From Psammoneis japonica (Eukaryota), in contig QPGO01000075.1 of the NCBI GenBank assembly GCA_008632985.1, forward strand, positions 2,517 through 66,516: a stretch of 64,000 nt of DNA. The letters are read 5' to 3'. Shown piece after piece: positions 8,960-62,026 of this stretch (its first letter is position 1; every line of letters begins with the position of its first letter). The position numbers were made by a program, and so were the translations under genes. Below the pieces are notes generated by a model. It worked only from the letters and a program-made list of their open reading frames with translations, did no database searches and was not told the DNA's origin.

Positions 8960-9069
8960 CAGCGCATCGCAATCTTGATCTGGCAGTCTGGCAATGGTTT
9001 CAAGTTTCAAGACGCTGCGTTCGTAATAAAGAGCAAGAGAAGAAACGCACTGTATGGTACTAAAACAAC

Positions 9070-28526: not shown

Positions 28527-29005
28527 TCAATAATCCGTGCCGTTGATTCTTGTTAAAACCAGCAGGACGAGCTATCATAGAATTTATCACTCAACGGAAA
28601 TCCGATTCTCGAGAATCGGAATTCGGATTCTTAAGAATGGGAATTCACGACTTTCGTCGTGACAGATCTTCACTGCGCTGCCGCCGACACCGTGGACACA
28701 CTAATCCTGCAAGGTTCGTTCGCTCGCCAATAGCAATGATGACGTGCATGCTTTCCGATACACGTTAAATCCTGCTACGTCAGCAGTACGGTTGCCTCAT
28801 TTTTTTTTTGCGCGGGCACTTCACAATCTTCAACTTCCCACGATAGACCGTGAAGGTTCACGCTAACATCAGTATTCTGCTGCTGTATTATTATTTCTGA
28901 CGATCCCTTTACCTTGATCTCCGAGCAAAGACCACCTGACTGCTGCAATAGTAAGTTCTAAAGAAGTGGCATAGCGAGCAGAAGTTGCTGAGCTCGAGAG
29001 GAAGT

Positions 29006-39300: not shown

Positions 39301-42300
39301 TTCAAGTTCCTTTACTTTGAGGTCCAAGGACAAGCGGTGATCAGGGGCAACAATCACAAACCCAGAACTATCTTGACAGTGGCTCAACAAAGCCTGCATA
39401 GAAACGACTTTGTGGTTATTGAGCTGTACGTCACGGGAAAATGGCAATGTAACAAGTTTGAGATGGAAGACTGATGCAGAAAGTCTATGATGAAAAAAAT
39501 CACAGGCCTCTGAAAGCAGCTGGGGGAGGATGTTGATTCGTGGAACTGCTTTATTATTGCAGTGAAAAGCCCAATGAAGAATGAGCAAGGGGAGGATCAC
39601 ACTTGTAATAGGTAGATATGAAAGAAATGGTAAGAATGTCGTTGTATCTCGTATGCTGATCGAAAAGCGATCGCATCAGCGAACTCACCGTGTTTTCCCC
39701 ATACCCATGTTAAGTTGTACAATGTCACCTATGTTCTCGATAAGATGACGAGAAACCGCAGCTTGTTCCGGCCAAATCTGAATGCAGTGTTCAACTTCAA
39801 ATACCAACCAAGCCGGGAAATCGGATGCGCGCCAATTTCTGATCACGGCAAGCTCCTTGATAAAACCTTGCTTGTCGTGAATAAGTTCCGACAGACGCCC
39901 AACCTTGTCTTCGATAACGCAAAGGCGAAGCCACTCAATGATCCAAGGCTGAATAGTTCTCTCTTCATCGGTAGAAAAAGATGAGACAAATTCCAACAGC
40001 ACGTCGTGCCGCAACGCAGCAAAGAGTAGATCCCGAGCCGTTGCTCGTGGCTGCACTCCAGATAACCGCTTCAAGTCCACGCTTGACGGATTTTCAGTAC
40101 ATGCTGTATTATTCAAGGCGCTCAGTACATGGTCCTCAACAGCCTGTCGTGAGTGCGCGGTACTTTCATGTAACCCAGCAATATGAATTGCGATTTTATC
40201 AGGCTTGAACTCGCAAAAATCAGGTCGCTTCGATGTCTCCTTATGAATTTCCCAACTTGCGCGCTGCTCGGCGATAATGTCTGCCTCAAGCGGAGTTTTT
40301 GATTTTCCGGTAAGCGGAAAGTCGCATTGGGAATCTTGATCTTGACCTAGCTCAAGACTCCCGCGGAGCTCTTTGAGCGAATTCTCCAGCTGCGTACTAA
40401 CATCGGTTTGTCCCGGGAACGATGACATGGGGACGGAGGTGGCGGATCGACGTATTGGCCTATGTCCGCATTGTCCAAGTATCCTCTTTTCCTCACTTTC
40501 CGTCAGACAATTACGGTAATCTAGCACGCCAATTCCCAGGTCCAACAAGTATTTGTTCGATTCATCCGCACTAGCCTCACATGCTGTTCCATTGTATTCC
40601 GAGCGGTCATCACTGGAATGTAGAAAAGGAACGGATCCAGAGCTCTGGATGATTTCAGAACAGAGCAGCGAAAGAGTAGAATGTCTCCCTTTGCAAATAG
40701 CCCTCAATCTCGAAAGGGACGTCATTTCTTCTCTGGAGAGGACTCGAGAAACCCAACTCCCTCTGACAAGCTCGGTCGCTATCTCAAAACCAGTAAGCAA
40801 CGTATCACAATCAGGACTCTTAAAGCTCGTAGACGCATGCAACGCGGCAAGATGGAGTCTAGATGACACCGTAGACGACGACAGTGTTTGAAATCTCGGG
40901 TGAAGATCATACTTGTGCCAGCGACAACTTTCGTCGCAGTTCGTACTTGTTTTGATCACCGTCGAGCCAGACAACGGGGAGCGCTCAATCTCTCCATCCG
41001 CAACAAGGATGCTACTACAGCTCACCCCACCAGTTTTCGCCAACCCTTGTCGAATAACGAGATAACCTGTAAACCCAAAGAGACATCCGAAGAGCTGCTG
41101 GCAGTTTTTCAAAACGAATCCAGATAGCTCCGTACAATGAAAAATACCGTCACGGTAGGTAAAGTTGAGACCGTATCGGGGAAGTGAAACAGTAAGTATT
41201 GCTGGCTGTCCCACCAAGATGAAATGAATGAACTGGCGGTCTTCCAATTTCGCGAAGATGCGCGATAGGTCGGAATCATGGAGGACCAGCCGCGGGAACG
41301 ACACAATGGATTGGTCAATATCTCGCACGACCAGAATGTTGCTCCTGAGATGGTCAGGAACAACACGGCATTCGCCAACACACGACTTGCTTTCGAAAGA
41401 AAGATTCACGATAAAGTAGACTTCACGTTTGGAATAAAGCATCCCTCGAAGAAAAATAGTATTTTTTTCTCTGCAGAGCCAGTGACTATGCATCCTCTTG
41501 AGACGGGTAGGAAGCTCGTCTCCCCATCGCTGAATACCATCGGAGGTACCATCGAGCAGCTCCAACCGCTCTCCTTCTTGCGACGTCTCTGTGATGCAAA
41601 GGCTTTTGCCGTCGAAAGCAAAGTTATAAATAAAACCGCCAATACGTCGCACTGTCTCGTACTGCTCGTTCTTGCACACAACTTCAAAGTTCCTTTGTCC
41701 GAAAGTCCGTTGATACAAGTCATGCTCAAGGATTTCGGTAGGCAACGAAGATGGCGGAAGACCATTGACAAGCCCCGTGCCGGTGAGAACATTGATTGCA
41801 TAGTTACATCCATCGGAGCCTATACCAAAAAAGCTTGAAGATGATGATTCAAGTGGCTTCCACCGAAGACTATCGGGTACAACGTCGATTACAGCCCGGA
41901 TCGCATCAGTCAAAAAAGATTTCCTTCTTGTGACGACGTCGATGACATGAACAACGATTCTAGCGTTGATATTGTCGCATCTTCTTTCGATGCCGGCAAG
42001 TTCGCCACTAGCCTCCGCTCCTTCGATGCACAAATTCTTTCCAATGGCTCGACATTTAAGTGCAAGACCGGTGTCATTATCATTCATTGGGCCTTGTGTT
42101 GAGCAGAGAATCGATAGACTGAGTAGAAGTTTCTGTCGAATCCGAAAACTAGCGACGTCAGAGGATTGCTCTGTGGACTCAGCCTGACGACCGAAGTCTT
42201 GCGCCCATTGAAAAGCTGCGTCAGCTAATCGCCTTGAGATCACCTTCAGCTCGCCATGCTGCGCTATCTTCGGATCTCGGTCCCAACCGGCGAGAAACCC

Positions 42301-45300
42301 GGCGACATCCGCGACAATGTGTACCGATGAATAGCTACTTGGGCTGTCCTTTATTTCATCGACAAAATGGTCCAAGACAACTCTGAGTGCCGGTAGAAGC
42401 TCACCAAGGATCAGGTCACGCTTCCAGCAGAACAACACGTCGCCTTTAGAACTAACATTGAGCCTTCCGATATGAAATAGTGTCTGTTTGAGTAGGACGT
42501 GTACACAGTGGTGCTCAAGTGGAAGCGATCGGTCAAGAAGCGCCACAAGCACACTCCGCAGCTGCCTGTGTGGATAGCTCCTCATATTGCAGAAAGCTAG
42601 AAACTGCGTTTTTGATAGCCACGAAGGCCGCGTCTCCTGGCAGGCAAGAGCTCGATTTCCTCGTACAGGAGCATCATCCGCATTCTCCTCAAGCCGCATG
42701 GTCCACTGCAGAGACTTCCCATCTATTCCAAGCTTTTCGGTGAAGTATGAAATGACCCATTTCCGAGGAATTCGAAAAGGATCGAATGCTCCGCCATTCA
42801 TGGCACGATCGCACAAGAGGCTTCCACCAGTCCATTCCATACCAAATGTGACTGCGTCGGGAAACCACACGCCATTCTCCCTCGAAGACATGTTGTCAAC
42901 AGATGTCGGTCCAATTGTTTTTGGAATTACGTCAGCTAAACCTCTTGTTGAAACCAAAGCAACATCCCCTTGCGAACCCTGCCTCTTTTCTCGTGGAGAG
43001 TGAAAACAATAGTATTGGTTGCTGTTGTAGAAGTCCTTCAAGCACTCCCTGTTTGTAATCTGCAAGGCAGCAAAAACATCAACAACCTTTGTTCCGTCCG
43101 GCCCATCGCATTCGGCAACCCAAGGTCGTGGAACAAGCATTTGCTGAGCAGAAAAGCTAAGAGTTGATAGATCTCTGAGAATCGGCGGCATGTGAAGAAA
43201 GAATAGCCATACACGGGCCTTGGCCTCTTCTCTTGGCAGCGGCTGGCATACTGGCGGAGGAGCCTTGAGTGCGGCTTTTAGACTATTCTTGCGTGATGAA
43301 ACCTTCTGTTCGAGCGATCGTACTCTTGATTCACATCGGTCCAGTTCTGATCGTGAGGCGTATTTACTACCAGATCGCGCATAGTCGTACCTTTCTTGCG
43401 CATCGTTTCGGTCGACTTTAGCAGTGTCAAGCTGCCTAGTTAGGCTGGAAATTTCCGATCTGAGCCTGCGTGCTTCACGCTGCTTCCTCAACACTTCCTC
43501 CCAGTGCTTGTCCATTCGTTGATTTGCATCGTCCATTTCTGCCTTCAATAAATGCTGCAATTTGGTGTCGTTCTTTGCCCAAGCTCTAGCAAACTGATTG
43601 GTTGCATCTGGCGCACGCAATGAGAACAACTCAGTATTCTCTGAGTGGTGGTTCTCGTTGAGAAATGACGCGACTTCCGCAAGCGCCCTCCAACAAGTAC
43701 GGTCGTCAAGGACAAGATGTTCCAAGTCGCTAAATCGAAGCGCGACGCTGTATGTACCTATCCCCATCCCAGCAATCTCGCGCTTCAACGTGGAAAAAAC
43801 AAGACAGTATGCAATCCATACTACTAGCAGCTCTCGACTCCGTAATACAGAAATCATGAGGCCGGACGTATCCAAACGTTGAAAAAGGCTGCGGTACTCG
43901 TGCACCACATCAAGCAAGTTTGAGACTTCCAATTCACTTAGACAAGCGGCATCGAAACCATCGAGGGCTCTGTTCCAGAAAGTATTTTCTACCGCTCCAA
44001 GGCGGAGAAGTATCGTGTCCGAGTTATCCTTGCCTTTGAAGGGCGAAGATTTCAGGTATGCAAGAAGCTCTTTCAAGTCAAACTTGGAATTATGCGTAAA
44101 GACATGGTGTGGACCAATATTGTTTTTGATTCTGCTCTCAAAGCTACGTTCCTTGAGTGCTGGTCCAGGTGCTTCCTCTGGTAAATCAATCCTCGGTGAT
44201 CGGAAGGAGTTGGGGTTCCTCAAGAGGCTATCGACGTCCGGCAACAGAAAGCGATCTGCCTCGGCTCGCGCAAGTCGTTCAACGACTTTGTCGATGCGAT
44301 TCCTCAGATCGTTTGATGCATGAAAGACAGAATGAATGGTTGAGGCACCGATCTCATGTTCGTCTGCCTCCATGGAAACTACTTCAAGTATCCGAAATGC
44401 GACGTCAAGATCGGCCCTTACTTTCCAAGCCTTTTCGCCTGTGGCCTCGATACTATCCTCCTCTGCTCGCGTGACTCTATCGTCGAGGATGCGGAGATGG
44501 ACAGAGAGCATAAGCTTGATGAACAAGACCTTGTTGGTACAACCACATTGAGTGAGACACCAATCCAAAATGAACTTGGCTAGTGCATAACTCGTGTTGC
44601 GAGGCTCACCCCCCGTGTGGCGACCAACATCCGTGAATCCACCTTTGGGAGTAACATCATGGCAACCACACCTTGTTCCCATTGCACAGGGACAACGGAT
44701 TGCTTGAGTTGCAAGTGCGTGAACAAGAGTTGGTGTAAACTGGTGCCCCTGACGCCCACCTGCCGCAGTCCGGCGGTCTCCGTCACGTTCCTTTGCGGTA
44801 TCCAGCAACTGCTGAAACCGCTTCCAGAAGGCTTCCATCTTGTCTTCCTCGAGCGTTCCAGCAATGAGCATCTTGTAGTCCTCGGCGTTTGCTTCGTGTC
44901 GATATCCGTCTGAATCGTCATGATGTAAGAAGAACGAATGTCGGTCGAGGCCAATGATCGAAATGGTCCTGGTGAAAGGCATCTGGTGCTCTCCACGATG
45001 AGCAAAAAGTGCACTGCCATATTGGGGTAGCCAACGAACGTCAGGTCCATTGCCCTTCATCATGGAGATTGCTTTGTCAACAGCACGCATCTCATCGGCG
45101 GAGAAACCGGTAGTAGGCGGTTCCTTGTCCGAGACTCCTTGTTCGGGCGTTTCGTCGCCATCTCCGTTAGGCTAGGAAGGGCCATATTAAGCCAGGAATG
45201 TTAGCACAGTCGAATGACAAGCTTCCAAATAGAACTAAGTTGAACTTACCGCTAGGCCTTCGATGCACATAAGAAGCAACTTCACAAACTGCTTACACGA

Positions 45301-45718
45301 GTGAGCATCCTGCAAATGCAGAACGCTCCTGTTTGGCAACGCATACATGCTCTGGAGGAGCCGGTCCAATATCGCCGAGTCAAGAGTAAGCTTCATATTC
45401 ACTCAGATCTAAAGCCGTTAACTGTATTGTTGCAACAACAAGGTCGTCTTTGTTTATTCTGAAAAACGAAAAGCTTTGTTCACCTTTCGTGAACAAAGTG
45501 AGACTGCTACTGCATACCAACTTTCGCAAGGCGAGAAGAGAAAAATACCGGATCTGACATGGGAAGAAGAGCTTCAATAAAAAGATCATGTTCAATATGG
45601 GCATGGCGAAAATTTCAAAGGCCGTAGCACCGGTACAATAGCGCGTTCCTAACGCCCAACGTTGTACGCTTTCTTCCGTCGATCCAGACGAAGATTCTTG
45701 AGCTTCATTCTCGATCAT
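36399..45718 (-). CDS. Giant DUF3638/DUF3645-family protein (~2900+ aa) with a P-loop/SF2-like core; 5' end uncertain
   Basis: QLNMGMGKTRVILP, DVLDESDELL, LSVPFRGADTPSLRSEFSHPD, GFSGT, RGSDLKL and QAAGRMR. Introns at 45172-45249, 39602-39688 and 38587-38674. First exon(s) in 45250-45718 unresolved. Confidence 0.8.
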
Positions 45719-46980
45719 GTGTGGCTGAAAGATTCATGATCTGCATTAACTCATCCTCTATAAAACAGCAAAAAGATCCGACTGCCAATGGTCATGCATG
45801 CACATGGTTAAAAAGCCCGAATACCTCAAATGTGACGTGCAACATTGTGAGAACGAAACCCACCGAAGCGCTTGTAGCCGCGTTTCGATGAATGATACGA
45901 TTTTTGATGCATTAGGGCTACAAAGACTTGTATTCCAGCCAGTACAAAGATTGACTCCGCATCACAAACGAGAAGATACTCTGAACTTGCAGTAGCATGC
46001 AACAGCGCGAGCATCCTCTAAATGACAAGCGCCTCATACACAGTATAGCACCGCACTCAGCTTGCTTTAAGCGGCCTCTGCCATATCATAAGACTGCTTT
46101 TACGCTACATATGGATCATCCTGTAGCAACTACATGGGAAACAGTGTTAAAATAATCCGTACATCCATTTGAATCGCAGCGCGGCGACGTCATGGCCGCA
46201 TCGTCGCGTGCATGGATGGTGGAAAATCTGTCTATCAATTGTATTCATTGTTGAATAAACGTATATGCTCCAGAAATTCTTCACTTCAAAAACGGCGGCG
46301 TCTGCAGCCATGATCCATGATGTTCAGCTTCAGAGGTGGTCGGCGTTAGTAGTACAAAAAATCGCTGCACATCGCACCGATCACACCTTAAGCCATTTCG
46401 ATCAGACATCGTGAGAATAAGAAAAGATTTTTTCAACTCGACGCTGAAGGGAAAAAGACGATCTACATATAATATGACGATGAACCCTCATTCATCTTTT
46501 TGGTCGAGCATGATTGGCTTTTTCTCGTTCCTTTTTCAATTGGATTACGTGGAGGAAACTCAAGAGTTGTCAGAACCAACCCGTGATTGTGTTGCTGAAG
46601 AAAAAAATTCGGTCGCCACGGTGCCACGACAAAACCATGAATCATCGACCGAAAGTCATGCTGCCGCAGAAGAATCATTGATGCGTTCCAGGTCTAGGTG
46701 GGACCTCGCACTGCTGAACTGTGACATCGACAGTTTTTTGAATCACGTGTATGTCGCGAACGTAGATTTCTACGTGATTTTTTCGACATTTTGTGTCATT
46801 TTACGGTGCACTTGTTGAGCGATCCGTCCAACAACTTTTTACATTTTTTGTCACAGCGCGATTCTACAATGTCTTGTGAATCGCGCAGGGCGGGCACATT
46901 TGCAGAAACGTCGAGTGGCAAGAGGCACAATTGCACCACAAACTTGGCAGTTTATTTGATGTTGAAGACAAACACATCCA

Positions 46981-48558
46981 TTGGTTGAATTCTCGTGCTG
47001 CGGAGCTCGCACGCAGAATTCTGCGGGCCCAATGTCACACGGAGTCCCACCTGGGACTGGAACCCGTCCATTTCAGTTGTCGTCACAGGGGCAAGAATCA
47101 TCTGCTGACAATGCGAAAGAAAATTGTTCTCTGGAGACTTCTGACTTGTTGCACGCCGCTGACGATTCGTTAAGATCAGGGGCAGCGTCACAAAACATTG
47201 AAAACAAAAGCACTGATGATGACGAGAAAGTCTCACGCAGCAGCCGAGAATGCGATCAAGAAGCATCGGGGAGCCGAGAGCAAGCACAAGCGCGACTCTT
47301 GTCGGATCATAATCCATTGACTGAGCTCAACAAGCACGTCACAAAGCCCCGACTCAACTCAAGACAGCATGCGTTAAATTTTACGAGCCAAAGTTGCTGT
47401 TCACAGGGTGGGCGACACAATGGTGGAGGAGCGCGTTCTCACTGCCCCAAAAGGCCATCCACCACCTTTCAACAACGAAGGGTGATGCAGAAGTCGAGTT
47501 TTCATTTCGTGAGAGAGGAGCGGTCGGATGCCAGTTGTGGATGGTCTGTCAACAAGATTCATGTGGGTTCTTTTACGAATCGCGTTAGTGACAAGGATCA
47601 CACCGCAGCAAGAGTGGCCCAGGGCGGAAGCAAAGGCAAAGCATCTGCTTTGGCTTTGACCAAAGATGCGAGCAGGTCTGAGAAACGACACCATCAGCTT
47701 TTTGCCAAGGACGAGAAGGAGCCTTTTGAGAATCCCAAGATGTCCACTGGTGGAAAGCGGAGTGCGCCCGCGTCATCAAGAAACCCTTCAGCAAGTGCCG
47801 CGTCCCGTTCGACCAAAGACACTGGCAGGTCCGAGAAACAACACCGTCAGCTTTTTGCCAAGGATGAGAAGGAGCCTTTTGAGAATCCCAAGATGTCTGC
47901 CAGTAAAAAGCGGAGTGCGAGCGCGTCATCAAGAAACCCTTCAGCGAGCGCCGCATCCCGTTCGACCAAAGATGCTGGCAGGTCCGAGAAACGACACCGT
48001 CAGGTTTTTGCCAAGGATGAGAAGGAGCCTTTTGAGAATCCCAAGATGTCTGCCAGCAGAAAGTGGAGTGCACCCGCGTCATCAAGAAACCCTCCAGCGA
48101 GTGCCGCATCCCGGTCAACCAAAGATACGAGCAGGTCCGAGAAACGACACCGTCAGCTTTTTGCTGAGGACGAGAAAGCACCCGAGATGACCAATGGAAA
48201 GCGGGGTGCTCCCGCGTCATCAAGAAACCCTCCAACGATGAGCGCCAGAAGAAACCATCCACCAATCGACGTTTTGGACAGCAGTGATGACGATCGCCTC
48301 CAACCAAAGCACAAAAGAAGACCTTTTGCCGATGCTGAAGATGAGGCCATTTTAGCTGGCGTCAAAGAATGCGGTGAGGGGAACTGGAAAGCCATGAGAG
48401 TGTGTGGCCATGCCGTCTTGCACTCGCGCAGCACGGTCAACATCAAGGATCGCCATCGTGTTCTGAAGAAATGCGGGAAAACTGAGGGAATGGAAAACTT
48501 CCCGGATGAATGTGCAGATGCAATTGCTGATGAGACGCATCATGGCAGCAGTGAGTGA
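46981..48558 (+). pseudogene. Element-borne ORF with 51-aa repeats and a C-terminal telobox/TRF-type Myb domain, TpA-mutated
   Basis: RRPFADAEDEAILAGVKECGEGNWKAM...SRSTVNIKDRHRVL matches a TRF Myb pattern (FT..ED..L..GV..YG.G.W..I...R....KDRYR) after T->A, Y->C, I->M and Y->H changes. Start uncertain. Confidence 0.7.
47659..48230 (+). repeat. 153-bp coding tandem repeat, ~3.5 copies
   Basis: ACCAAAGA.. units start at 47659, 47812, 47965 and 48118. Confidence 0.95.
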
Positions 48559-48966
48559 ATCAATTGATGATCCGATTGCGATCTTGGTGTGGTGGGTCCA
48601 AGAACTGAAGATTCAACACAACTCTTGCGTCGTCATTTTAGTTTCTCAGCAGGACCATGGACTAAAATAATTTCATCCTTCCTCATCTTGTGAACAGTTG
48701 CACTGGTGGCGACATTCTCATGTTGCAGCCATGCCGTTGCTTGTCGTGTGCGACATGGGCGGCGACACCATTTTCACGTTTCTCATGGTGTGGTTGGGGG
48801 ATTGAGAGCTCCTCATCATTGCAATGAAGCCGCCAAATTCAGAAACCAAACAGACGCACCGGCATTGTCCACAGTTCTTAGCTGCGACAGGCTCTGCGGC
48901 ACAACAGCAGAGGGCATGGCAGCCCTCTGCTCTTCTCTGCTCTCCAGCTCTATCTGCTCCACTCTT

Positions 48967-48969
<3 letters not shown>

Positions 48970-48999
<30 letters not shown>
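48970..48999. repeat. (CT)n microsatellite
   Basis: Uninterrupted TC run of about 14 units. Confidence 0.9.
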
Positions 49000-49001
<2 letters not shown>

Positions 49002-49039
49002 TCTAGAGAGGAAGCAACGGTGTATGTGCTCATTTCTAT

Positions 49040-49471
49040 TGCCCCATGCATGCGCCAGGTGCTGAAAAAGAAGATGTGTTACGACTTTGTCGTTGTGAAA
49101 ATTATGAGCTAGTTTAGAGTAGAGAAAATGGGATCGTGCGAATAGGGAATCTTGCCAAATCCCTATTCGTTCGCATTTGGATCGTATTAAATCGATCGTG
49201 CGTTCGCATTGTGGATCGTGCGAATCAAGCCATCACGCGCCATGCACGAGTGATGTCATCGTGTGGAATCACGCTGCCATCGTGGGCCAGACGACGGGCT
49301 AGTGTGCTTCACACGGATGCTCTCTTAGCATCCTTCTGGAATTGCCTAAGACCTAGAGCCACGCCCTCCTGTGGTCGTGCTTCCCAGGTGCGTGTTAACA
49401 ACACCACGTTGCCACGCACAAGAGGCTCATGCACGGTCTCACCGTGTTGTCCAGCAGCGAGGCATGCTGCA
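49040..49471 (-). repeat. 3' LTR
   Basis: Colinear ungapped match to 53907-54338; adjacent to the PPT. Confidence 0.92.
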
Positions 49472-52400
49472 CACTCCCCCATGATCAGGGCCGTCAAGTG
49501 ACAGAATGTCTTGCTGGTGATGGGGCACAATCTGCTGCAGATCACACGTGTCCATCAGCACTCCGTTCTGGACACGCAACGTGCCGTTGTCACACACACG
49601 GACAACTCTGGCGGGTCCTGCATGGCTGTCAGAACCGCACTCAGAGGATTGTTCCTGTTTGACAAGCACCAACTGCCCTGCGGTGTGTTGATGCTCCTTG
49701 CGTTTCTGATTTTCACGCTTGTTGTTTAAGTGGGCAAGCTTCTGCTTTCTGGTTTCCATGCACTTCCACTTGGCACGATGGGCAACAGACAAAACCGCAT
49801 CGCGTCCGAAGACCAATTGCACGGGACTTGCACGCGTGGTCGTGTGCACCGCAGCTCCAATGGCGAAGGCTGCTGCGGAGAGGATGCCACTCCATGGGTC
49901 ATCTTCGTCCAGTTCCATGTCCTGTGCTGAAAAGGAACGTGCCATGTTGCCAAGTGTCTGGTGCACACGTTCCACTGTGGCATTTGCCTGTGGATTCCGT
50001 TTGCTCATGGGTTTCTTCAAAATCCCACAGTCATTTTTAATCATCTGGCCAAATTCTGCCACAAATTTTGTCCCACGGTCACAAACCACCTGGGTTGGCC
50101 ACGGACATCTGCACAGCCACGTTTGTTCCACGATGTTTGCTGCGACGTCTGCGCGTTTCGTAGACACTTCTTTGATCTCGAACCACCTGGTTGCTGGGTC
50201 AATCATTGTGACTGCCCACAATTGCAAGGTGTCCTTTCCGCGTCTTTGAATTTTGTGTGGCCCCATCGTGCCCATGCATGGAGTTTCCCATGGAATTGTC
50301 TCTGTGACCTTTTCTGGTGGCTTCCCATGACGCTGCGTTTGGCGTTTTGTCTTCTGGCATCGATCGCACTTAACGCACGTAGAATGCACCGTAGACCTCA
50401 TGCCAGGCCAACAGAAGTGCTGGGCAACAGACATTTCCGCATGTGTCTCACCTGGATGACACAGTGTCTCGTGGTGCCATTCAGTTAGCGGAACCTGCAA
50501 TGACTGTGGTGCTGTGATTTTGTCCTTATGACAGATTGACTGTCGTGATGACCCTCCCCCACGACACGCGTGAATGGAGCAGTCGGACGAGTCCTTGGCT
50601 CTTGAGAGCAGGCGCTTGTCCTTTTGTTGTGCTTTTTGAATGCGCTTGAAGCTAATGGGCAGAGACAGCTCATCTTGAGCGTCTGCATTAAAGGCTTCAT
50701 GCAAAGGACGACTCGATGGAGTGTCTTTTACATCCGGATTGGCCTCGGAAGGCAAGCTGGGTGCTGGTCGAAGGCGACTAAGAGCGTCAGCGACTGGGTT
50801 GTGGGTGCCCTTAACACAGCGTAATTCGGGACCGCATTCTTCGCATGTCAACTGCCAGCGCATGACGCGCTCGGCATTGAACACTTTGTGCGCAAGATTT
50901 TTATGATCGGCACATGTGATCACACGATGACCAAGGAGAATCGTTCGAAATTCTTTCAACGTCTCCACAATGGCGAGCAATTCTCTCTCCGTTGTTGCAT
51001 GATTTAATTGCGCACTGTCAAGCTTTCTGCTGTAAAAGGCGACAGGTTTATCATCTTGGGACACAACTGCTCCCAATTGACATTTAGAGGCATCGGCGTG
51101 CATCTCAAAGGGTTTGTTGAAATCAGGATGTGACAGTGAAACATCATCCGACATCACCCGTTTGACGGTTTCGAACGCCTCGTCTTCAACGGACGTCCAT
51201 TCCCACTTGACAGTCTCGCTTGCGAGTCGTGTTAGCAGAGCCAAGACTTCAGAACGTCCAATCCACGTGTCGCGGCAGCAGTTCACCATGCCAACAAATG
51301 AACGCAGGTCGCGTTTGTTGGTTGGGGTCGCGATTCGCTCAATGGCGTCGACTTTGTTGGGTGTTGGTCGTGCTCCGTCTCTGTCAACCAGACAACCCAA
51401 GTGTTCTAATTGGGTTTGACAGAAGTGAGATTTAGTTGTGTTGACTTTTAGTCCTGCTTTCTGGACCCTCAACAAAACTTCTTCAAGTTTGTTGAGGTGA
51501 TCTTCACAGGTGCCTTTCGTCACGACGAGAAGGTCATCTAAGTGCGTTCGAACGAACGACAGATCTTCAAATGAGCCTGACATGCGTTCTTGGAAAATGT
51601 CTGGCGAACCACACAATCCCATGGGCAATGCCTGCATCTCACACTTGCCCCACGGGAAGATGAGCGTGCAGAGCTTCTTGCCATCAGCATCCAATCAGAT
51701 GTGACAACAGCCCATGTTTAAATCCAGCGATGTAGCCCACATAAAGCCTTCGAGCTCAAGTGGCACATCTTGGACATGAGGAATCGGGTGAGGCAATCGC
51801 TCAATCCGTTTGTTCAGCTCTCTGAAATCATTGATGAAGCGCACCGTTAAATCTTTCTTCGGCATGACAAATGATGGAGCTGCCCATTGGGATCGGCTGA
51901 CGCGTTTGAGAACACCGATGCGCACTGGGCGCTCTACTTCCTCACGCAGCGTAGCTTCGTGTGCACGAGGTGCTTTACACGGACGAGCGTGGTGTGGTTC
52001 TGCACCCTCCTTGAGTTGGACATGGCAGGGTTCTCCCTTCCATTCTCCCAATGTCCCATCAAATGAGGACTCATGGCGTTTCAACAGTGCCAAAAGGTCG
52101 TTTTGTTGAACCACAGAAAGTCCCATTGCCCCTCGCGTCATGTCCTCGAGGCAGGCCGGCGCGCACTTGGCGTCTGAAATGCGCGAAATCCGGTCGGTTT
52201 CCGAAGATGAGGCTTCTGGATCTTGAAGATAGAAGGAGGTTTCCACCGCAGCATCTGCGTGCCTCATTGGCACTTCTCCATTGACCAATGGCCACTCTGT
52301 CATCTGTTTAGAGAAGACAACGTCAATGCCTTGTGTCTCCAGAATGTCACGTCCAACAATCATGTCGCACTTGCCCAACTTTCCGTTGTGTGCGTGGACG

Positions 52401-52720
52401 GCATGCTTGGGTTCTGCAGTTTCGGATAATTCTGGCAACCGAAATTTAACGGTGCAGTCGTCAGACGTGCCAAACGAGCCTGCTGCCGTGGTCCAGTTTG
52501 TCTCAGCCATTGAATGGCTTCGCAGACGTTCACAGCATCGACTGTCGAGCAGAGCACTGCCAGCGCCACCATCTGGTGGTGCCTCAATGGTTTGAGTCTT
52601 GCCCTTGCCATGTTTGGCATTCACAGCCACAAACAAGATTGGAGTGAGATGAGTCTTTTTAACTCGTTTGCGGGATTGGCCTACAACACGTGTACGATGG
52701 CAATTCAGTTGTTCATTCAC
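49439..52720 (-). pseudogene. pol: pol (protease, reverse transcriptase, RNase H, integrase) with an in-frame TGA at 51695-51697
   Basis: SQWAAPSF, RFINDFRELN, LPMGL, HLDD (for YLDD), DAS..LGAV, ERELLA, VADALSR, DRG..F and VERVH. The two ORFs are in the same frame, separated by one TGA (probably from CGA). Confidence 0.93.
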
Positions 52721-52768
52721 ACATTCATCTGATGTGTTAAAACTGCCTGTGTTGTGTCGGCCCCCTTC

Positions 52769-53812
52769 TCAGGCGTCCGAATCTTCGGAATCACTTAAGT
52801 TGAGGTCACGGAAGTGATTGAGCTCCTCCTCGCGGGCCTTGCGCTTTTTCTGAGCGTTGGCAAAACACTCCTCGACCTTCGATCCGATGAGAGCATCAAT
52901 GTCTTCCTCATTCCGAGGTTTTGCATTGGGCTTGCCGCCTCCGTCATTGGAATGTCCAGTCTTGACACGTTTCACGTGGTGCTCAAGCTGACGGCAATCT
53001 TCCGCATCATGTCCACAGTCAGTCCCGTGTGGCATGCACGACTTCTGGGTGTTCCGCTGGGTCGTGATCAACGACTCAGGATTGTCCATTCTACGTCCCT
53101 GCTTACGTGGAACCTCAGCATGTTGGTCCTGGTTACCTTCGGCAAGCTCGACCTGCTCGATGCGCTCGCAGAACTGTACAAATTCGGCGATGGCATGCGC
53201 CAACGGGTCAAAATTCTGTAGCGTCATGAACTTCTGCCATGCGTTCGGCACACCGCACTCGAACATGTCGCACAGTTCGTCATCAGGTGATGGTGCCGGT
53301 GTTTCTCCATCCTCCATCACGGGTGGAAACTGAGAGATGCAGCCGTTAATTTCAACAGCCCTCGCGACGCAGTCACGAGTAGAAACCTCTGCGGGCTTGC
53401 GCATGAAGCGCCGCAGATGACGCTTCTGCAGCAGCACCGCCCCATTTGGGAAGATGCTTTCCTTTAGCTTCGCGACGCATGCTGCGCACGCAGCGTTGGT
53501 TTGGGACGCCTGCTTGTCAGCGGCATCATCAAATGACGTCAGAGCATCGCCCTGTAGTGAGTCACGCATGAGGGCAAATTTCGCTGGCCCGGTCGTGATG
53601 TTTTGTCCTTCGTGCACGCGATCCACGTTGCGTGGAAAGATTGGGAGTGTCTCGCATGTAGCCGCAGAAAGGTGCGGGATGCCCATCTCTTGCGTTGGAC
53701 TGTCCGGATCAGTGGGGTTGTTACACAGCTTGTATGTCTGGTGCTCGCCCTGCTGCAGCTCTTTCTTCTCTGGCCATGCGAACAGAATCGGCGGCTCAAT
53801 CCGCTTCTTCAT
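52769..53812 (-). pseudogene. gag: gag-like ORF
   Basis: ORF between the 5' LTR and pol, with QKRHLRRFMRKP and a CxxHG..GH....C knuckle-like motif. Confidence 0.75.
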
Positions 53813-53906
53813 GGTCGTTTTGAGATTTGTCGGTCCCACCAACATTTCGTAGTTTCGTTTCTGTAGATTTCATTGCCTTGCACAACATGCGGGAGTGATG
53901 TCACTG

Positions 53907-54338
53907 TGCCCCATGCATGTGCCAGGCGCTGAAAAAGAAGATGTGTTGCGACTTTGTCGTTGTGAAAATTGTGAGCTGGTTTAGAGTAGAGAAAATGGGA
54001 TCGTGCGAATGGGGAATCTTGCCAAATCCCTGTTCGTTCGCATTTGGATCGCATTAAATCGATCGTGCGTTCGCATTGTGGATCGTGCGAATCAAGCCAT
54101 CACGCGCCATGCACGAGTGATGTCATCGTGTGGAATCACGCCACCATCGTGGGCCAGACGATGGGCTAGTGTGCTTCACACGGATGCTCTCTTGGCATCC
54201 TTCTGGAATTGCCTGAGACCTGGAGCCATGCCCTCCTGTGGTCGTGCTTCCCAGGTGCGTGTTAACAACTCTGCGTTGCCACGCACAAGAGGCTCATGCA
54301 CGGTCTCGCCGTGTTGTCCAGTGGCGAGGCATGCTGCA
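53907..54338 (-). repeat. 5' LTR
   Basis: Match to 49040-49471. Confidence 0.92.
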
Positions 54339-54619
54339 CTGTTCTCTGATTGAAATGCCAGCACACAACATTCGTGCCGGGCCAACACATCCAAAAAAAT
54401 CCACCCTCGGTTCTACCCTGTAGAGAGCAGCACTCATCCTGTGGGGAAGAAGACCAACCCGTGGCCATCAGTGGAGAAGCTACGTGCTAGCAATCAACCT
54501 GCGCAAACCCCACACGAGGAGTTGAACCCGAAAAAAAACTCCAAGACGAAGCGAGCGACGCTCAAAAAACACCGCGCCGTCACCTTGACCATGGCCTTTG
54601 AATGCCCGTAGTTCTGCTC

Positions 54620-55350
54620 GGCACCCATTGCAGCAAAGGTGTGAATGCCAACATTGACTGATGAGACTGTGAAAAAAATGATGCTTGCTTTGGATTTTTT
54701 GCTTGCCCTTGCCTTTTGGGTGTTTGATGACTTTTGCTGCAAGAGAGGAAACACGCGGCGCCACCGCGTCGGTGACAGCAGCGTTGACATTTCTGCTCGG
54801 TGATTTGAGGACAAAGGTGAGAATGCCAATGCTTGCCAAACTTAGCTGTAAAAATCGCATGGTTGTGTTTGCACTCATTGCAAAGCCCGCATTTTGGGCG
54901 TTTGATGCTTTTTTCTGAGGCACAGCTTTTCTCTCACTTTTTCCATTGTTTTGTGGTCGCTCACAGGTCTGCCCGGCACCCATTGCAGCAACGGCATGAA
55001 CACCGCTACGGATTAACATGACTGTGGAAAAAAATGATGCTTGCAGTGGATTTGTTGCTGCTCCTCACCTCTTGGGTGTTTCGCGACTTTTGCTCCCAGA
55101 GAGGACACTGACAGGACTGCCGCGTCTGACACAGTGGCATTCACAATCAAGCTCAGCTTCGGACTGCAAAGGTGAGAACAACAAAATTTGCTAACAATGA
55201 TGTCGAACATGTGATGGAAATGTTTGTTTGTTGCACACATCTCATGTTTTGTGCGTTTGATGATTGTCAAGTGTGGCGCAGTTTTTTCCTCACAGTTTCT
55301 CCTGTCTCGCCGTCGCTGACAGGCCCACTCGGCACCCATTGCAGCATGGG
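54620..55350. repeat. Diverged ~355-bp tandem repeat (2 units plus the start of a third)
   Basis: GGCACCCATTGCAGCA at 54620, 54975 and 55331; ACTGTG(G)AAAAAAATGATGCTTGC near 54666 and 55021. Confidence 0.8.
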
Positions 55351-56310
55351 CGCCAAGGTGAATACGGACCAAATAGTTATAAAAAAATGCACCTCAAGCC
55401 AAGGATGCGGAACAATCTGTTTAAAGATCAACGGCAGCAACCCTTGGTCGTGCCTTCCGCGCTGGGGAGCAGCTTGTTTTCTTCTCAAGCTGGTGGAAGT
55501 GCAATGAGGTGCTGATTGTTCCTTGGGCTAATGCAATTGTTTAGTAACATTTAAATATAAAATTCACAACAGTGATCTCAAACAGGTGCTTTGGAGCTTG
55601 TCAAAGTTGAAAGCAGTGCAAGTCGTTCGTCTGCTTTCCCACAGGGAGTGTGAAGGTTTCTGCTGCACTCAGGACGCCTGTGAGTGCTGCTTGCCATGCC
55701 ACCATAGATGCAGTTGGCATTGGTGCAGTTGCCGGGGTTGCATGCGGCAACGCTCATGGTTGAGATGCCGCATTGAGACGAGTAGAACTTTCGAGTATTT
55801 TTTTTGTTCCTCCCGTCGCACTCGACATCACGCACCAAGGACAGACTGTTTAGATCGCGCGAAAGGGGCGCGCAGGGTAGAATTTTTGGCTCCGAAAATT
55901 CTACTGTGCCTTCTACCTGAGTGGAATAAACAGTGGATGTACGGTAGATCTTTTTAGAAGATACTAACACCGTATTGTCATTTTTACATACGAGAATTCC
56001 ACTTTCCAGTAGAAAAATACTCCTTGGGTAGAATTTTGGGTGTAACGGTACGGTACTCTACACTATCTACTATCCGCGAGTCGTACCCGCGACCAAAGCA
56101 AATCTTCGAAGTTCACGCAGTTCAACAATGAAAAACGTGTACGGTAAATCAGGGAGCGGGTGTTCGATGATGTTCGATTGCGAAGATGCAGAGATAGAAC
56201 AACCGCGGACGTTGCTTTTCCCATTAGACCTTTGATAAAGCTTCTCTTGGAGCGAATCCAAGAGCTAACCTTTAGCAGTAGCAGAGCTGTTCGGAGTTGG
56301 AAAAGTAACG

Positions 56311-57426: not shown

Positions 57427-59488
57427 CGAAAGAATAGAGAAGTAGACGCGTTTATGGGATGTCAGCTAGAGGGCATTATAGTGGACTTATTCTTATTGCT
57501 TTATCTGTCTTTAGCTCCCATGTAGGGTCCATCTCAGCATGTCTCTAGAGAGCCGCAAGAGAGCAGGAAAATTAGAAGAATCAGTGGGATGTCAACATGA
57601 CTCAGACACAATTGAGCATGACCAACATTGTTTTGATGAACCGAGGCAAGGTTCAACATTTAGACAAAGCATTGTCTCCCTCTCCCACACAATCATTTAA
57701 TTTTTTTGACATGATGCTGAAGATCCAGTGCATCACCCATGATGTCTCAAACCCTCACAAACTGTTTTGCACCTCTTTGCATCTGATGCAAAAGTCCTGC
57801 AACTTGATCATTGCCGCACGATGGCAGGAAAGCACAATCATTTGATTCCCACAGCTGCAAAAGATGCACAGGTTCAATGGATGCTGTGATGATGCATGTG
57901 ATTGTTTGTGGTGCTGGGATTGCTGGTTTTTTAATTGCCCAATTTGCACCACTGCCCAGACCTTTGGTGTGGAGTCATGGTGCTGGAACAATGCAACAAC
58001 AACAAGACCAGCATGGAGAAAGGTTTGCAAGGCACAGACAGCCCACCACAATCCAAAGTCAACCACAGCTCTTTTTGGGGTGCTGGTCCATGGTGGGTCA
58101 GCTTCTTGATTGGCAATGACCACATGCACATTGAAATGGCTTGGAAAACATGGCAAAACACAGATGCAGTGTTGTCCAGCACAAAGATTTGGTGTGGGTG
58201 TGGTCAGAGAAGTCTGCATTTTGGGGTGGCTTCCTTTTGGTTTTGGGTTGGAACTTTGTGCTGGTGTTTGTCAAACATTTTCTGCATTGGCACCACATTG
58301 TGGGCAAGGGCTCCATCAAGGAATTGCAGTTCTTGCAGCGGGTGGGGTGCACAGTTGAGAAAAATGGGGGTGCCGCAAGTTGGACTTCCAAAACAAGGTC
58401 ATTGGGAATGGCTGCACAGGAATTTTTGCTGGCAAGAATGAGAGTGCTGCCTTGCACACAGACACACAATTCTGGGGCACTTGCTTCTTGCGGATCAAAA
58501 GAGTCTCCAATTCGGGTGCTGATCTAAAGTGACTGCTGTTGAAAAAATGAAAATGGCATGTCGCGCATGTCTGTGTGCTGCAAGATGGCATGAGAGGGAG
58601 TGCTTGCTGCAGGGCCAAAATGTTTGGCTCTAGCCAGCAAAACAGTCCAGAGCTCAGCAGCAGCTGAGCCTGCTGCAATCCAGGCCACCAGATGTGAGCC
58701 AAGAATGAGTGCTTTGCCTGCCCTGCATGTTGGCTGCTGGAAGCACCACAAAGCACAAAGATGGTTAAATCTGCCACTGCACCACTTGGCCTTGTTGGGG
58801 CACCAGCCAACTTTCATGTGGGTTTCCTGCCAATCATGAGCCAAACACACACCAAAGAACAATGAGAACCTTGCCCAGCTGTCTGCTTGGGCATTTGGGC
58901 AAGAGATTGCACAGGAGAAGAAATGAGAAGGAACTTAAAATTTCTTTTGTGGTCAGGGCACAGTGGTGCACATTTTTCAAACCTGGCCAACTTGCAATTT
59001 TGCCACAGACTGGCGATGGCCTGCATCCAACAGCTGGGCTTTCCACCAGTTCTTGATGAGGTGAAGTGCCATGATGAGCCAATCAGAGCCCACTCCTGCA
59101 ATTTGCAACACTCTGCTCATGAGGCAGCATTGCCCCCGGTCCATCCTGCCATCAAATGGCATGACAAAAAAAAACAGAGCTGTTTTTAAGTGCCATCACT
59201 CCTTTGCCAGCTGGGCTGGTGCCGGCTGACCCACACTCCCAGTGCACAGTTAAGTGTGGCAGAAGCTTGCGCTGGATCAGCCGGGGTGGGCATCACCAGA
59301 AGATGACACCCCACCAAGATGACTGAAAAGGAATGATTCACACGAGGGATTTGTTGCACGCTTGTTGATGACAGCCACAAAAGGCACACCACAACTGCAA
59401 CGGACAATTGCACTCAGATGGGTTTTTAAAACAGTCCACAAAAGGAGCCTTGAAGGTGAGACGAGCAGGTCATTAGAGAAAATGTTCT

Positions 59489-59960
59489 TGACACGTAGAA
59501 ACAACACTGAGTCTTGCGTGGAAAAGCCGATGAGAGCAGCAAACCAAAGACCATCAAATGGCATCACAGGACAACTTGCATTCTTGCTGAAAAGGGCTGC
59601 AAAAGAAGCAGCACATTCACCACAAAGAGCGAAGCACTTGATTGCACGGTGGAGAAAAGAAGAGAGGTTGAAGACCGATTGGCAAGGACAAAAGCAGTCC
59701 AGAGAAGTGACACACAGACAGTCAGAGGTGACACGTAGAAACAACACCAGATCTTGCATGGAAAGACCAACGGGAGTGGCAAATTAACAACAATCAAATG
59801 ACTCCAAAGGACAACCAATGTTCTTGCTGAAAAGGGCCGCAACAGAAGTGGTGCTTGCACCATAAAGAGTGAAGGACTTGATTGCATGGCAAGGAAAAGA
59901 AGCAGCATTGAGGACCAATTCGCAAGGACAAAAGCAGGCCAGAGAAGTGACATGCAGCAG
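59489..59960. repeat. 240-bp tandem duplication
   Basis: TGACACGTAGAAACAACAC at 59489 and 59729, with shared TTCTTGCTGAAAAGGGC and GCAAGGACAAAAGCAG blocks. Confidence 0.85.
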
Positions 59961-60411
59961 ATCGTCCGGCATCTGCAGATCCGCGTAGAATTTGCACTAG
60001 AACCTGTGTAGAAAATTTTCTGAGACAACAGAAAATTTCAAGAAATGACAACCAGCACACGAACCAAAAGGCCGGGACACTCGTCGTTTTTCCACTGATG
60101 AACTTTGCTCATCATGCTGCAACAAGGATGTGCCATTGGTGAACATGGACAGAATGGGCTTGTTGGAGCCAAATCAACACCATCTGAGAAGGGTGACATC
60201 AGTGCAAGAAGGTGCATGGAAACCTGCGCAGAAGCTGAGGGTGTGCAGCTGATGTCGAAAAGTGTCAAATGGCATGACAGAGCATGATCACTTCCCCAGC
60301 AGAGAAAGTGCTGCCTTGGGCCCAATTGCTCAAGCAGCCAAAGACATGGCACAAGAACCTGGGGAGGGCACCTTGGCATTGGATCAGCAATCTGCCAGTC
60401 TGTTTGGCATC

Positions 60412-60709
60412 ACTTGTTGCAAGAGGTCAGCACTCCTCTCAGACATTTGTGGGAGAAAATGAGCTCCAAGTGGACGTGGAAGCTGCAGATTGCTTTGCGA
60501 GAGCAGCTTCATTTCTTGCTGTCAAGGAAGTTGGCATTGTCCAAGAGCAGGTGTCCCCAGCATTTCCAAGATGTCCCAAAGTTGTTCAACAAGCACGCCA
60601 AAGTGCACAGCAGCAGAGATGCTGGCTTGTTCCTGACAAGAGAACAGAGAAGCAGATGTGCTCTCATCCTCTGTCTCGGGGCATGTCTGGAGAGCCATGA
60701 GAGAGCAGG
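60412..60709 (+). pseudogene. Decayed duplicate of the lipase 3' end and 3' flank (57206-57567)
   Basis: Colinear similarity: TTGCAAGAGGT, GAGCTCC..GTGGA, CTTTGCGAGAG, TTTCCAAGATGTCCC and GTTCCTGAC; peptide FVGENELQVDVEA vs FMGENELRVDVEA. Confidence 0.88.
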
Positions 60710-62026
60710 GTTGTCACTCTGTTTCTGGCAGAGAGTCGCCAAGTGAGATGAGTCAGAAAGACCAACCTGAGCTGTTGTGAATGTCAGCCAAGAATCCCAA
60801 GAGCTGTGGATGGCTGCTGAGATGTGAGAAGGTGTTCTCTGTGTGAAGCACATGTCTTCAAGAGAACCTCTGGCACAACATGGAATTTAAAGTGCATGCA
60901 CAAACTCTGAATTGCACCAACATGTCTTGAAAAGCTCAAGGGCACAAGCCACCTCCTGCAGTGCCATGAGGAACAGGTTGTTTGACATGATTTTTTGTTC
61001 TTGGAGGAGGGCATTTGCTGATTCTGCCAACACATTTGCAACAATGGAGATGGCAGCAAAAGACACACTTGGACATTGTAGAGGAGTGCTCCCAAAGCAA
61101 GAAACAGCACAGGGGACCCTGCATGAGATCCAAAAGCCACCTGCCACTGGCTTAAAAAAAAAACAGTGGATGCACAACATCACAAAAGGACCACAAGATC
61201 AAGCAACAAGCCCTGTGAAAGTGATGCCAGCTCAGGCAGGCATGCTCCCCCCCACCTCATTCATGACAACATCTTGCTGCCAGCAGGAGGAGGGAACTGC
61301 ACACCCATCTTTGATGGCAGCGCTGGACAGAAGCTGTCCAAGCAATGGCTTTGTCCATGTCAGCTGCACACCTCCTGCCTGGAATGCACATGCTGCAAAG
61401 TTCCAAGGCTGATTTGGTGATTTCCTTTGTTGCACAGCATTTCAGAGAGATGCAAAGCTTTTGTGCTGTGTCAGCCATGACTTGGGGTGGTGCAAAACCT
61501 CCCTCTCCATGAGCCAAGAAGAGAAGAAATCTGCCCCACTGAAAGATGCCCCAACAACAACACAAACAGCAAAGTCTGTTGCTTCCATGCTTGATTTGCT
61601 GCAGAGCTGCAGAGCTGCAAAAAAGTCAATCTCTTGTTGGAGAGAGCAACTTTTGGTTTTCTCATTGCAGCCAGCAAGTCCAAAACCCACACAACATTGG
61701 AGATTGCACTGCATTGCTGCAGACACATCCCAGCAGTCAGCACCTTTTGACAAGGGCAAGAGCAGCATGATCTTGTTTTGAAACAAGTTCAATGAGCACA
61801 GAATGAGCTGATCCATCATGATTGTCTGCCGCAATGCGGTGCACTGTGGTCAGGGAAAAAGATTGCTGAGGATCATGGCAACAAGACATTCTTGCACAAA
61901 CAATTGAGGTGTGGCCTTGTCTCCACAGCTTGCCCAAGCACAACAGCCCAAAGTCAGAAGTGCAGCAAGCCCCCCTTGACCTGATGTGTTGTCAACAAAG
62001 AAAGAGCATTGTTGAGCTGGGAGGGA

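Follow-up and report, generated by a model that had tools for sequence, protein, structure and literature searches.

Probable TpA-specific hypermutation of a Ty3/gypsy retrotransposon and other sharply bounded blocks in a diatom genome

A dead copy of a high-copy Ty3/gypsy long terminal repeat (LTR) retrotransposon lies on the minus strand at 49040-54338 of a 64-kb window from the nuclear genome of the diatom Psammoneis japonica (assembly GCA_008632985.1, contig QPGO01000075.1, positions 2,517 to 66,516; the window is the whole stretch analysed, and all positions below are counted within it). The state of this element is very probably the outcome of a hypermutation that is specific for the dinucleotide TpA (TA), acts on DNA after integration and is confined to TA-depleted blocks. 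The original prediction, made from the letters of this stretch, had placed the damage in a gypsy pol at 49439-52720; this interval does contain pol, although the whole element extends beyond it on both sides.

Conserved tyrosines are replaced by cysteine or histidine

In the stop-to-stop frame at 49439-51694 (minus strand), a recount agreed with the original prediction of a single tyrosine in 751 residues. The whole gag-pol frame (49439-53869) contained 4 Tyr in 1474 residues, with 3.9% Cys and 4.1% His. Among the 120 relatives listed, Tyr made up 2.87-4.72% of residues (median 3.9%), and the medians for Cys and His were 1.3% and 2.5%, respectively. The chance of finding at most one Tyr in 751 residues at 3.9% Tyr is P = 3e-12.

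Conserved Tyr columns were defined as those with Tyr in at least 60% of 60 aligned relatives. At the 33 columns that qualified, the element carried Cys 16 times, His 13 times, and Tyr, Trp, Met and Ala once each. The excess of particular replacements that had been forecast was present in the alignment to relatives: Y>C (16) and Y>H (13) were accompanied by I>V (15), T>A (7), L>S, L>P and I>M (5 each), V>A (4) and I>T (3). Twelve motifs had been proposed as sites of Tyr loss, of which nine (HLDD, GCCHI, WGKC, EHLGC, NCCRD, NHAT, CADH, EECG and RCPWP) do fall at columns with Tyr in 37-60 of the 60 relatives; the other three fall at variable columns, where Tyr occurs in 18/60 (CQLG), 10/60 (FCWP) and 9/60 (CDRG). 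The derivation of the protease sequence PPDG from LLDS was also borne out, as PPDGGAG (52559-52579) aligns with LLDSGAS in the 41 relatives that cover the site. None of the 120 relatives carried the Cys and His residues.

Changes are concentrated at TA and affect both strands

The element differed from its relatives at 170 conserved columns, and 109 of these differences could be explained by exactly one type of single-base change. A>G accounted for 45 of the 109, with a preceding T in 36 (P = 7e-17), and T>C for 31, with an A directly 3' in 30 (P = 2e-16), as expected if the replacements arose at ancestral TA sites. The remainder consisted of 10 G>A changes (8 at CpG), one C>T change (at CpG) and 22 transversions. 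TA>TG or TA>CA thus explained 66 of the 109 coding replacements and CpG decay 9. APOBEC-type cDNA editing, which would give G>A or C>T in a TC/CC context, was ruled out, given only 10 G>A and one C>T among the 109, with 9 of these 11 at CpG. GC-biased gene conversion was likewise ruled out, the changes being confined to TA and CG.

On the coding strand, TA>TG was found 36 times and TA>CA 30 times (P = 0.54). The order of the two outcomes along the frame was intermixed, with 33 runs against 33.7 expected in a runs test, which rules out strand-specific tracts. These counts agree with the earlier reading that TGY and CAY codons are intermixed and that both strands were mutated.

The two LTRs have diverged at TA since integration

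Both LTRs of a newly integrated element derive from a single template and carry the same sequence. In this copy, the 5' LTR (LTR B, 53907-54338, minus strand) and the 3' LTR (LTR A, 49040-49471, minus strand), both with TG...CA termini, were 95.15% identical across 433 bp by self-BLAST. Their 21 differences comprised 20 transitions and one transversion, and 20 of the 21 belonged to the TA/TG, TA/CA, TG/CA or CG/TG/CA classes (P = 3e-12), the sole difference outside these classes being A versus T at 49403. Five TA sites were common to both LTRs, nine were kept only in LTR A (LTR B reading TG at eight and CA at one), none was kept only in LTR B, and three sites read TG in one LTR and CA in the other. 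For CG, 28 sites were common, three were found only in LTR A and two only in LTR B. In all, 12 of the 17 events at these sites involved TA or TG-versus-CA and 5 involved CpG. When the three discordant sites are taken as TA, 15 of 34 TA site-copies have changed, compared with 5 of 66 for CG and 1 of about 666 for other bases, which puts the TA rate roughly 100-fold over that of other bases and several-fold over that of CpG.

Since the LTRs were identical at insertion yet now differ at TA, the changes arose afterwards in chromosomal DNA, whichever ancestral dinucleotide the three discordant sites had. This result, together with the equal involvement of both strands, upholds the earlier claim that the mutations struck double-stranded DNA in the chromosome and not the RNA intermediate. 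Selection against TA was ruled out on similar grounds: the copies no longer function, and TA sites differ between the LTRs.

A second young pair of repeats in the window showed the same spectrum. Two inverted repeats (27682-27893 and 28319-28530) differed by 13 transitions and no transversion, 12 of the 13 being in the same TA/CG classes. The repeats are 212 bp long, 94% identical and 425 bp apart, and the end of the pair coincides exactly with the boundary of a TA-depleted block; a DNA-transposon terminus and a foldback element are possible identities. Seven older tandem or dispersed repeat pairs (69-85% identity) were set aside as too diverged for a spectrum, with many transversions and other transitions.

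TA loss depends on the flanking bases and spares the reading frame

TA survival relative to the relatives varied strongly with the neighbouring bases. It was 0 for ATAT, 0.03 for ATAC/GTAT and for ATAG/CTAT, 0.07 for CTAG, 0.11 for GTAC, 0.12 for ATAA/TTAT, 0.20 for GTAA/TTAC, 0.32 for CTAA/TTAG, 0.43 for CTAC/GTAG and 0.59 for TTAA. Hence, with an A before TA (or a T after it) loss is nearly certain, and TTAA is largely refractory. Because a TA site is its own complement, preferences at -2 and +1 are inseparable, and these values describe the combined flank effect. A similar order was obtained when all blocks were compared with host DNA, and the five TA sites common to both LTRs lie in the contexts TTAG, GTAG, TTAA, CTAG and TTAA. 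Such a defined extended motif favours an enzyme over general chemical instability.

Every Tyr codon is built on TA, which is also part of ATA, TTA, CTA and GTA, so its loss removes Tyr, Ile, Leu and Val. TA>TG/CA changes are unable to create stops, as TAA becomes TGA or CAA and TAG becomes TGG or CAG. This explains how the open frame could survive about 240 changes, the only premature stop being one ascribed to a CpG event, and why the TA-depleted blocks are full of long frames without relatives. The stop triplets TAA and TAG numbered 3.4 and 1.8 per kb and strand in the blocks and 9.8 and 8.3 in host regions, and frames reaching 100 residues or more numbered 36 per 10 kb in the blocks and 20 in host regions. 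Gene callers will predict spurious Tyr-poor, Cys/His-rich proteins from blocks of this kind.

TA depletion is confined to five blocks

In 500-bp subwindows, the observed/expected ratio (o/e) of TA was bimodal, at 0.00-0.3 in five blocks and 0.35-0.95 elsewhere, spacers included; outside the blocks, two subwindows within genes were low (0.26-0.28). The five blocks together cover more than half of the 64-kb window, and their edges are about 100 bp wide. In the pooled blocks (33.8 kb) the o/e was 0.11 for TA, 0.58 for CG and 1.61 for CA and TG, and in the pooled host genes and spacers (28.4 kb) it was 0.59, 0.97 and 1.13, respectively. By arithmetic from these pooled values, a deficit of about 1050 TA and about 800 CG in the blocks roughly balances an excess of about 2030 CA and TG. 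The spacers between host genes (for example, 8501-9700, 28501-28950, 34450-36400 and 45200-46400) keep a TA o/e of 0.5-0.9.

The first block (1-8500; TA o/e 0.03-0.28, CG 0.44-0.89) holds no recognised protein family and ends in a sharp edge at 8500. The second (14150-18200) has a TA o/e of 0.00-0.12, and its left part is also CG-poor (0.03-0.19). The third (21400-28500) contains a copia-like frame and carries the inverted-repeat pair at its right edge. The gypsy element sits in the fourth (46500-55500), where its flanks at 46500-49040 and 54340-55500 show TA ratios of 0.08-0.24; because these flanks surpass the element in TA depletion, the element is probably a nested insertion into older DNA that had been mutated before its arrival. 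The fifth (57650-64000), depleted in both TA (0.00-0.18) and CG (0.00-0.47), continues past the end of the window. Loss of TA and loss of CpG were uncoupled at 26001-28500, where the TA o/e is 0.09-0.14 and that of CG 0.86-1.20; both dinucleotides are depleted at 14501-16000 and 57501-64000. The stretches at 14150-16000 and 57650-64000, with a CG o/e of 0.00-0.2, CA and TG up to 2.4 and no protein similarity, are presumably the oldest repeats in the window.

The copia-like frame (21603-25736, plus strand) is open without interruption over 1378 residues, and a weak rve match near its start corresponds to the copia order. It contains 5 Tyr in 1378 residues, with 4.5% Cys and 3.5% His, and has clear relatives; at eight conserved Tyr columns it reads Cys six times and Phe twice. 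Judged from its sequence, this frame is a second family with the same damage. In addition, 6 of 150 copia-like relatives had less than 1.5% Tyr, one having none (P0171, P0191, P0212, P0215, P0242 and P0267). These may be further hypermutated copies, each covering just 2-3 of the conserved Tyr columns.

Other copies retain TA at the sites lost in the window

Contigs of sequencing run X1 give a view of the family; the run is possibly the assembly's own source and so does not count as independent confirmation. A total of 6222 of its contigs aligned to the element, and 503 of 520 variant places were transitions. Among the 40 places listed of 523, other copies had TA where the window copy has CA or TG at 18, and CG where it has TG or CA at 15; at three, the window element was the one to keep CG or TA. 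As other copies read TA or CG at those places, the losses appear largely private to the window copy.

The baseline was taken from 80 related metagenome elements, with a TA o/e of 0.77 +/- 0.13, compared with 0.22 in the interior of the window element (z = -4.3). Between 49473 and 54339 we counted 59 TA versus about 301 expected from the tetranucleotide frequencies of the relatives, a loss of about 240 of about 300 sites over 4.9 kb. One environmental contig (L006:1-1478) encodes a gypsy pol 58% identical to the window protein and has a TA o/e of 0.30. Its pol-matching frame contains no Tyr in 492 codons and has two in-frame stops, the longest open stretch being 320 residues, also with no Tyr; it reads GCHHI, HIDD, EHLGC and NCHRD at the corresponding motifs. 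Given this distance and the environmental origin of L006, the signature is not restricted to the assembly of the window.

Structure of the gypsy element

The element measures 5.3 kb and shows no frameshift across gag-pol. It has the features of the gypsy family, namely direct LTRs with TG...CA ends and the order protease, reverse transcriptase (RT), RNase H and integrase, with integrase last; the corresponding Pfam order is RVT_1 (C-terminal half), RT_RNaseH_2, Integrase_H2C2 and rve. Public protein data contain about 1800 relatives, the best being 58% identical.

The gag-pol frame runs from 53869 down to 49439 on the minus strand, ends in a TGA codon and is interrupted by two other TGA only. 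Its first part is a gag-like frame (52772-53869, minus strand) of 366 residues with 2 Tyr, without a Pfam match. The TGA at the junction with pol (52769-52771, minus strand) may be the native gag stop, since the proteins of relatives begin at the protease. The next part (51698-52768, minus strand; 357 residues, 1 Tyr, no Pfam match) comprises the protease and the N-terminal half of RT, with GCCHI replacing GYYHI; the protease was recognised solely by alignment to relatives bearing aspartic-protease Pfam domains. A premature in-frame TGA inside RT follows (51695-51697, minus strand), where the consensus of the relatives is Arg (HIRLD); with the ancestral codon deduced in this way, it fits a CpG transition, CGA>TGA. 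The last part (49442-51694, minus strand; 751 residues, 1 Tyr) comprises the C-terminal half of RT, RNase H and the zinc-binding and core domains of integrase, with Pfam matches to RVT_1, RT_RNaseH_2, RT_RNaseH, Integrase_H2C2 and rve. Catalytic motifs are damaged: YxDD has become HLDD (51533-51544) and the protease DSG has become DGG, in addition to the premature TGA in RT.

Outside the coding region, a putative polypurine tract, purine-rich on the element strand, adjoins the 3' LTR (49472-49480, minus strand). A tentative 4-bp target-site duplication, CTAT at 49036-49039, has a weak partner at 54339-54342 (CTGT, a 3/4 match), and the sole mismatch of this putative pair is one TA>TG change.

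Other frames of the window

Among 96 frames of at least 110 residues in the depleted blocks, the comparison with Pfam gave the weak rve match of the copia-like frame, a weak Myb match and a scatter below cut-off taken as chance. The frame at 1482-3398 (639 residues) had no relative at E <= 1e-5 and is probably an artefactual open frame. On the plus strand at 46966-48558, in a TA-depleted, CG-normal block, lies an open frame of 530 residues with no Tyr. Within it, three units of about 153 bp follow one another in tandem (47655-48238), and a weak Myb-like match lies near the C-terminus (E = 0.005, short of the Pfam cut-off); a hypermutated host-like gene and a portion of some other mobile element are both conceivable.

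Two host regions of normal TA content were also noted. The adjoining minus-strand frames of 758, 334 and 1828 residues at 36399-45171, with matches to DUF3638 and DUF3645, appear to form a single, very large host gene. The gene for CPSF subunit 2 (10824-13823, minus strand), whose best named relatives are in Cylindrotheca, Fistulifera and a Bacillariaceae genome, is divided between two frames (12252-13823 and 10824-11801) separated by about 450 bp, a split that suggests an intron or an insertion. These relatives indicate a raphid pennate diatom as the host.

Proposed mechanism and points that weigh against it

The above findings make it very probable that TpA is converted to TpG or CpA in chromosomal DNA after integration, through A>G changes on either strand after a 5' T. 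The copy would be killed by missense changes while its frame stays open, and the process would be aimed at mobile or silenced DNA, with host genes and spacers spared. Opinion could fairly be divided in equal parts over the enzyme class, for which we suggest by analogy a TadA/ADAT2-like deaminase that would turn adenine into hypoxanthine in DNA, the hypoxanthine being read as G at replication. The natural target of TadA/ADAT2-type enzymes is the A after U33 in tRNA. A broader model, to which we hold only tentatively and which seems a little more apt to fail than to stand, is that diatoms possess an 'inverse RIP' (after the repeat-induced point mutation, RIP, of fungi): a defence by TpA adenine deamination on silenced mobile or foreign double-stranded DNA, which prefers ATA/TAT, spares TTAA, is common with Rhizaria and is possibly ancestral to the stramenopile-alveolate-Rhizaria (SAR) group. 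One prediction of this model is that every transposon class would be driven to near-complete loss of TA and Tyr codons, and another that dead elements would persist as long open frames encoding proteins almost free of Tyr.

Several observations weigh against post-integration, targeted TpA hypermutation. No deaminase domain was found by Pfam among the frames of the 64-kb window, and 9 of the 45 inferred A>G changes lack a 5' T. The three discordant TG-versus-CA sites of the LTRs may derive from CG, which would bring the counts to 9/28 for TA and 11/72 for CG. The two LTRs are unequally affected: the 3' LTR (TA o/e 0.57) has lost 3 of about 17 ancestral TA and the 5' LTR (TA o/e 0.22) 12 of about 17 (Fisher P = 0.005), and the 500 bp of interior adjoining the 3' LTR keep one TA, a distribution other than a uniform post-integration process predicts. 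For three of the five blocks, which lack a recognisable transposon protein, the label of mobile DNA is an assumption. The case for targeting is built on one 64-kb window, in which block age and targeting are partly confounded. As to other copies, run X1 may be the assembly source, and 40 of the 523 variant places were seen. Finally, the signature was present in one of the 80 metagenome relatives (L006), a proportion that understates mutated copies because one of the two search patterns contained Tyr.

The 3' LTR (49040-49471) stands out as an island with 14 TA between strongly depleted stretches, and the 5' LTR has 5. This island could result from gene conversion from a younger copy, or from patchy or episodic action.

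Alternative explanations

The closest alternative places the lesion on the other base of the dinucleotide. If a TET/JBP-type enzyme oxidised the thymine of TpA to 5-hydroxymethyl- or 5-formyl-uracil, mispairing with G would yield T>C, and the symmetric TA>CA/TG outcome cannot separate such T>C changes from A>G on the opposite strand. In dinoflagellate DNA, 5-hydroxymethyluracil occurs with a preference for TpA and TpC, and 5-formyluracil is known to mispair with G. However, we found no excess of TpC>CpC, 30 of the 31 inferred T>C changes having a 3' A, and no TET/JBP gene was present among the frames of the window; moreover, we know of no oxidised thymine bases in diatoms. We therefore consider thymine oxidation unlikely. 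The possibility that TA loss is a by-product of CpG decay also deserves attention, as both coincide in 14150-16000, in 57650-64000 and within the gypsy element. Deaminated 5-methylcytosine could be subject to error-prone patch repair by a polymerase eta-like enzyme, producing A>G at WA motifs, the hotspot of polymerase eta, as in the second phase of antibody hypermutation. This explanation is improbable in view of the loss of TA without loss of CpG at 26001-28500 and of the rarity of A>G after A (3 of 45, and AA>AG at 1 of the 40 listed variant places); furthermore, a TA o/e of 0.00 over 500-bp subwindows far exceeds the known effect of polymerase eta.

It might also be argued that nothing is targeted, that a TpA>TpG/CpA bias acts genome-wide and that selection keeps TA in genes, the blocks being old neutral DNA. 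Host regions are indeed already TA-poor (o/e 0.59). But the spacers keep a TA o/e of 0.5-0.9 and the block edges are about 100 bp wide, and at the rate given by the LTR pair (15/34 TA versus 1/~666 other bases) the spacers would hold no TA, which leaves this account little probability. Changes made before integration, by ADAR-like RNA editing or by hypermutation during reverse transcription, are highly improbable, since the LTRs differ at TA, both strands are equally affected with the events intermixed, the ancestral LTR, as reconstructed, was not depleted, with about 17 TA over 433 bp, and depletion extends to the flanks, to the inverted-repeat pair and to blocks without a retroelement signature. 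The points that speak for editing of this kind are that the element interior is more TA-depleted than the 3' LTR and that ADAR prefers a 5' U. The same preference is given in a preprint on Bigelowiella natans (10.64898/2026.01.13.699255), discussed below. An artefact, whether a sequencer misreading modified bases at TA in repeats or faulty assembly, is barely credible. Such an origin might be suspected from the presence of just 54% of the element's sampled 31-base words in the best run, and from some places where no aligned contig has the letter of the window. Nevertheless, 1438 aligned contigs match the element with a similarity of 99% or more, contigs of a highly repeated family lose rare variants, the unrelated environmental contig L006 has the same Tyr-free pattern, and the changes differ between LTRs and between copies, unlike a systematic miscall.

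Comparison with known systems

Like fungal RIP, the process that we propose for the window would be a DNA-level, transition-only and dinucleotide-specific mutation of repeats, with sharply bounded blocks and a role in genome defence. The two run in opposite directions: under RIP, CpA becomes TpA, TA accumulates and stops arise, whereas in the window TA is lost and no stop can result. RIP itself was ruled out as an explanation, as TA is depleted, CA and TG are enriched, and the conserved Tyr codons show TA changing to TG or CA. DNMT4 enzymes, which are relatives of RID, a factor of RIP, occur in many diatoms, with a function described as unknown (PMC9998398). A DNMT4/RID-type enzyme, being a cytosine enzyme, does not explain A>G, and the consulted part of that paper on diatom DNA methyltransferases describes no mutational signature. 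Deamination of RNA by ADAR or ADAT, as in A-to-G hypermutated retroelements and viruses, is alike in giving A>G with a preference for a U or T before the A. It differs in acting on RNA, on one strand and before integration, whereas the element is affected on both strands equally and after integration. The CpG decay of methylated transposons is a second component here (5 of 17 LTR events, 9 of 109 replacements and the premature TGA) but leaves the TA loss unexplained, the two being uncoupled at 26001-28500.

If confirmed, the process would be an instance in nature of DNA mutagenesis directed at adenine, a reaction otherwise encountered mostly with engineered base editors. Genetic work is feasible in diatoms, with CRISPR knockouts reported in Phaeodactylum (PMC9998398), so that the enzyme and its targeting signal could be sought directly. 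There are also consequences for dating. A uniform clock is assumed in the LTR-divergence dating of diatom transposons, for example in a preprint of 2025 (10.1101/2025.10.24.684338); with 20 of 21 LTR differences at hypermutable sites, insertion ages would inflate about twentyfold. By term look-up, dinucleotide or hypermutation patterns were unmentioned in two papers on diatom transposons (PMC2806351 and 10.1101/2025.10.24.684338), and the full-text literature, with most subscription journals outside its reach, yielded no report of TpA hypermutation in diatoms or retrotransposons.

The nearest parallel is a recent observation in B. natans. In mutation-accumulation lines of this species, two viral regions gained 231 mutations, of which 230 were A>G or T>C and lay without exception on TpA (Mettrop et al., bioRxiv 10.64898/2026.01.13.699255, 2026). 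The regions consist of an integrated giant virus and a virophage; about 6e-7 mutations arose per site and generation, in some lines only (10.64898/2026.01.13.699255). Adenine deamination was proposed and an ADAT2-like candidate named (10.64898/2026.01.13.699255). The main text makes no mention of diatoms, stramenopiles, LTRs or retrotransposons (10.64898/2026.01.13.699255).

Set against that account, the diatom window is alike in its TpA>TpG/CpA changes on both strands and in its low TpA and high CpA and TpG. In B. natans the mutations are confined to integrated foreign DNA, the remainder of the genome mutating normally; here they are confined to blocks, in the one window examined. RT and DDE domains are described as enriched among the TpA-poor genes of B. 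natans. The two cases differ in that B. natans is a rhizarian with viral inserts and events caught live, whereas in the diatom window LTR retrotransposons and further blocks are affected and the changes are timed by LTR divergence. TA depletion is also much deeper in the window (o/e 0.00-0.2, versus 0.45 in the B. natans viral region), a flank preference is seen here and none is given in the main text of the preprint, and CpG decay accompanies the TA loss, beside a TpA-only signature in B. natans. A second distant lineage with the TpA-only signature would suggest that an observation made in one species reflects a more general defence of eukaryotes. The case reported here is best filed as an instance of the TpA-hypermutation kind found in B. 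natans, in a new lineage and on new targets.

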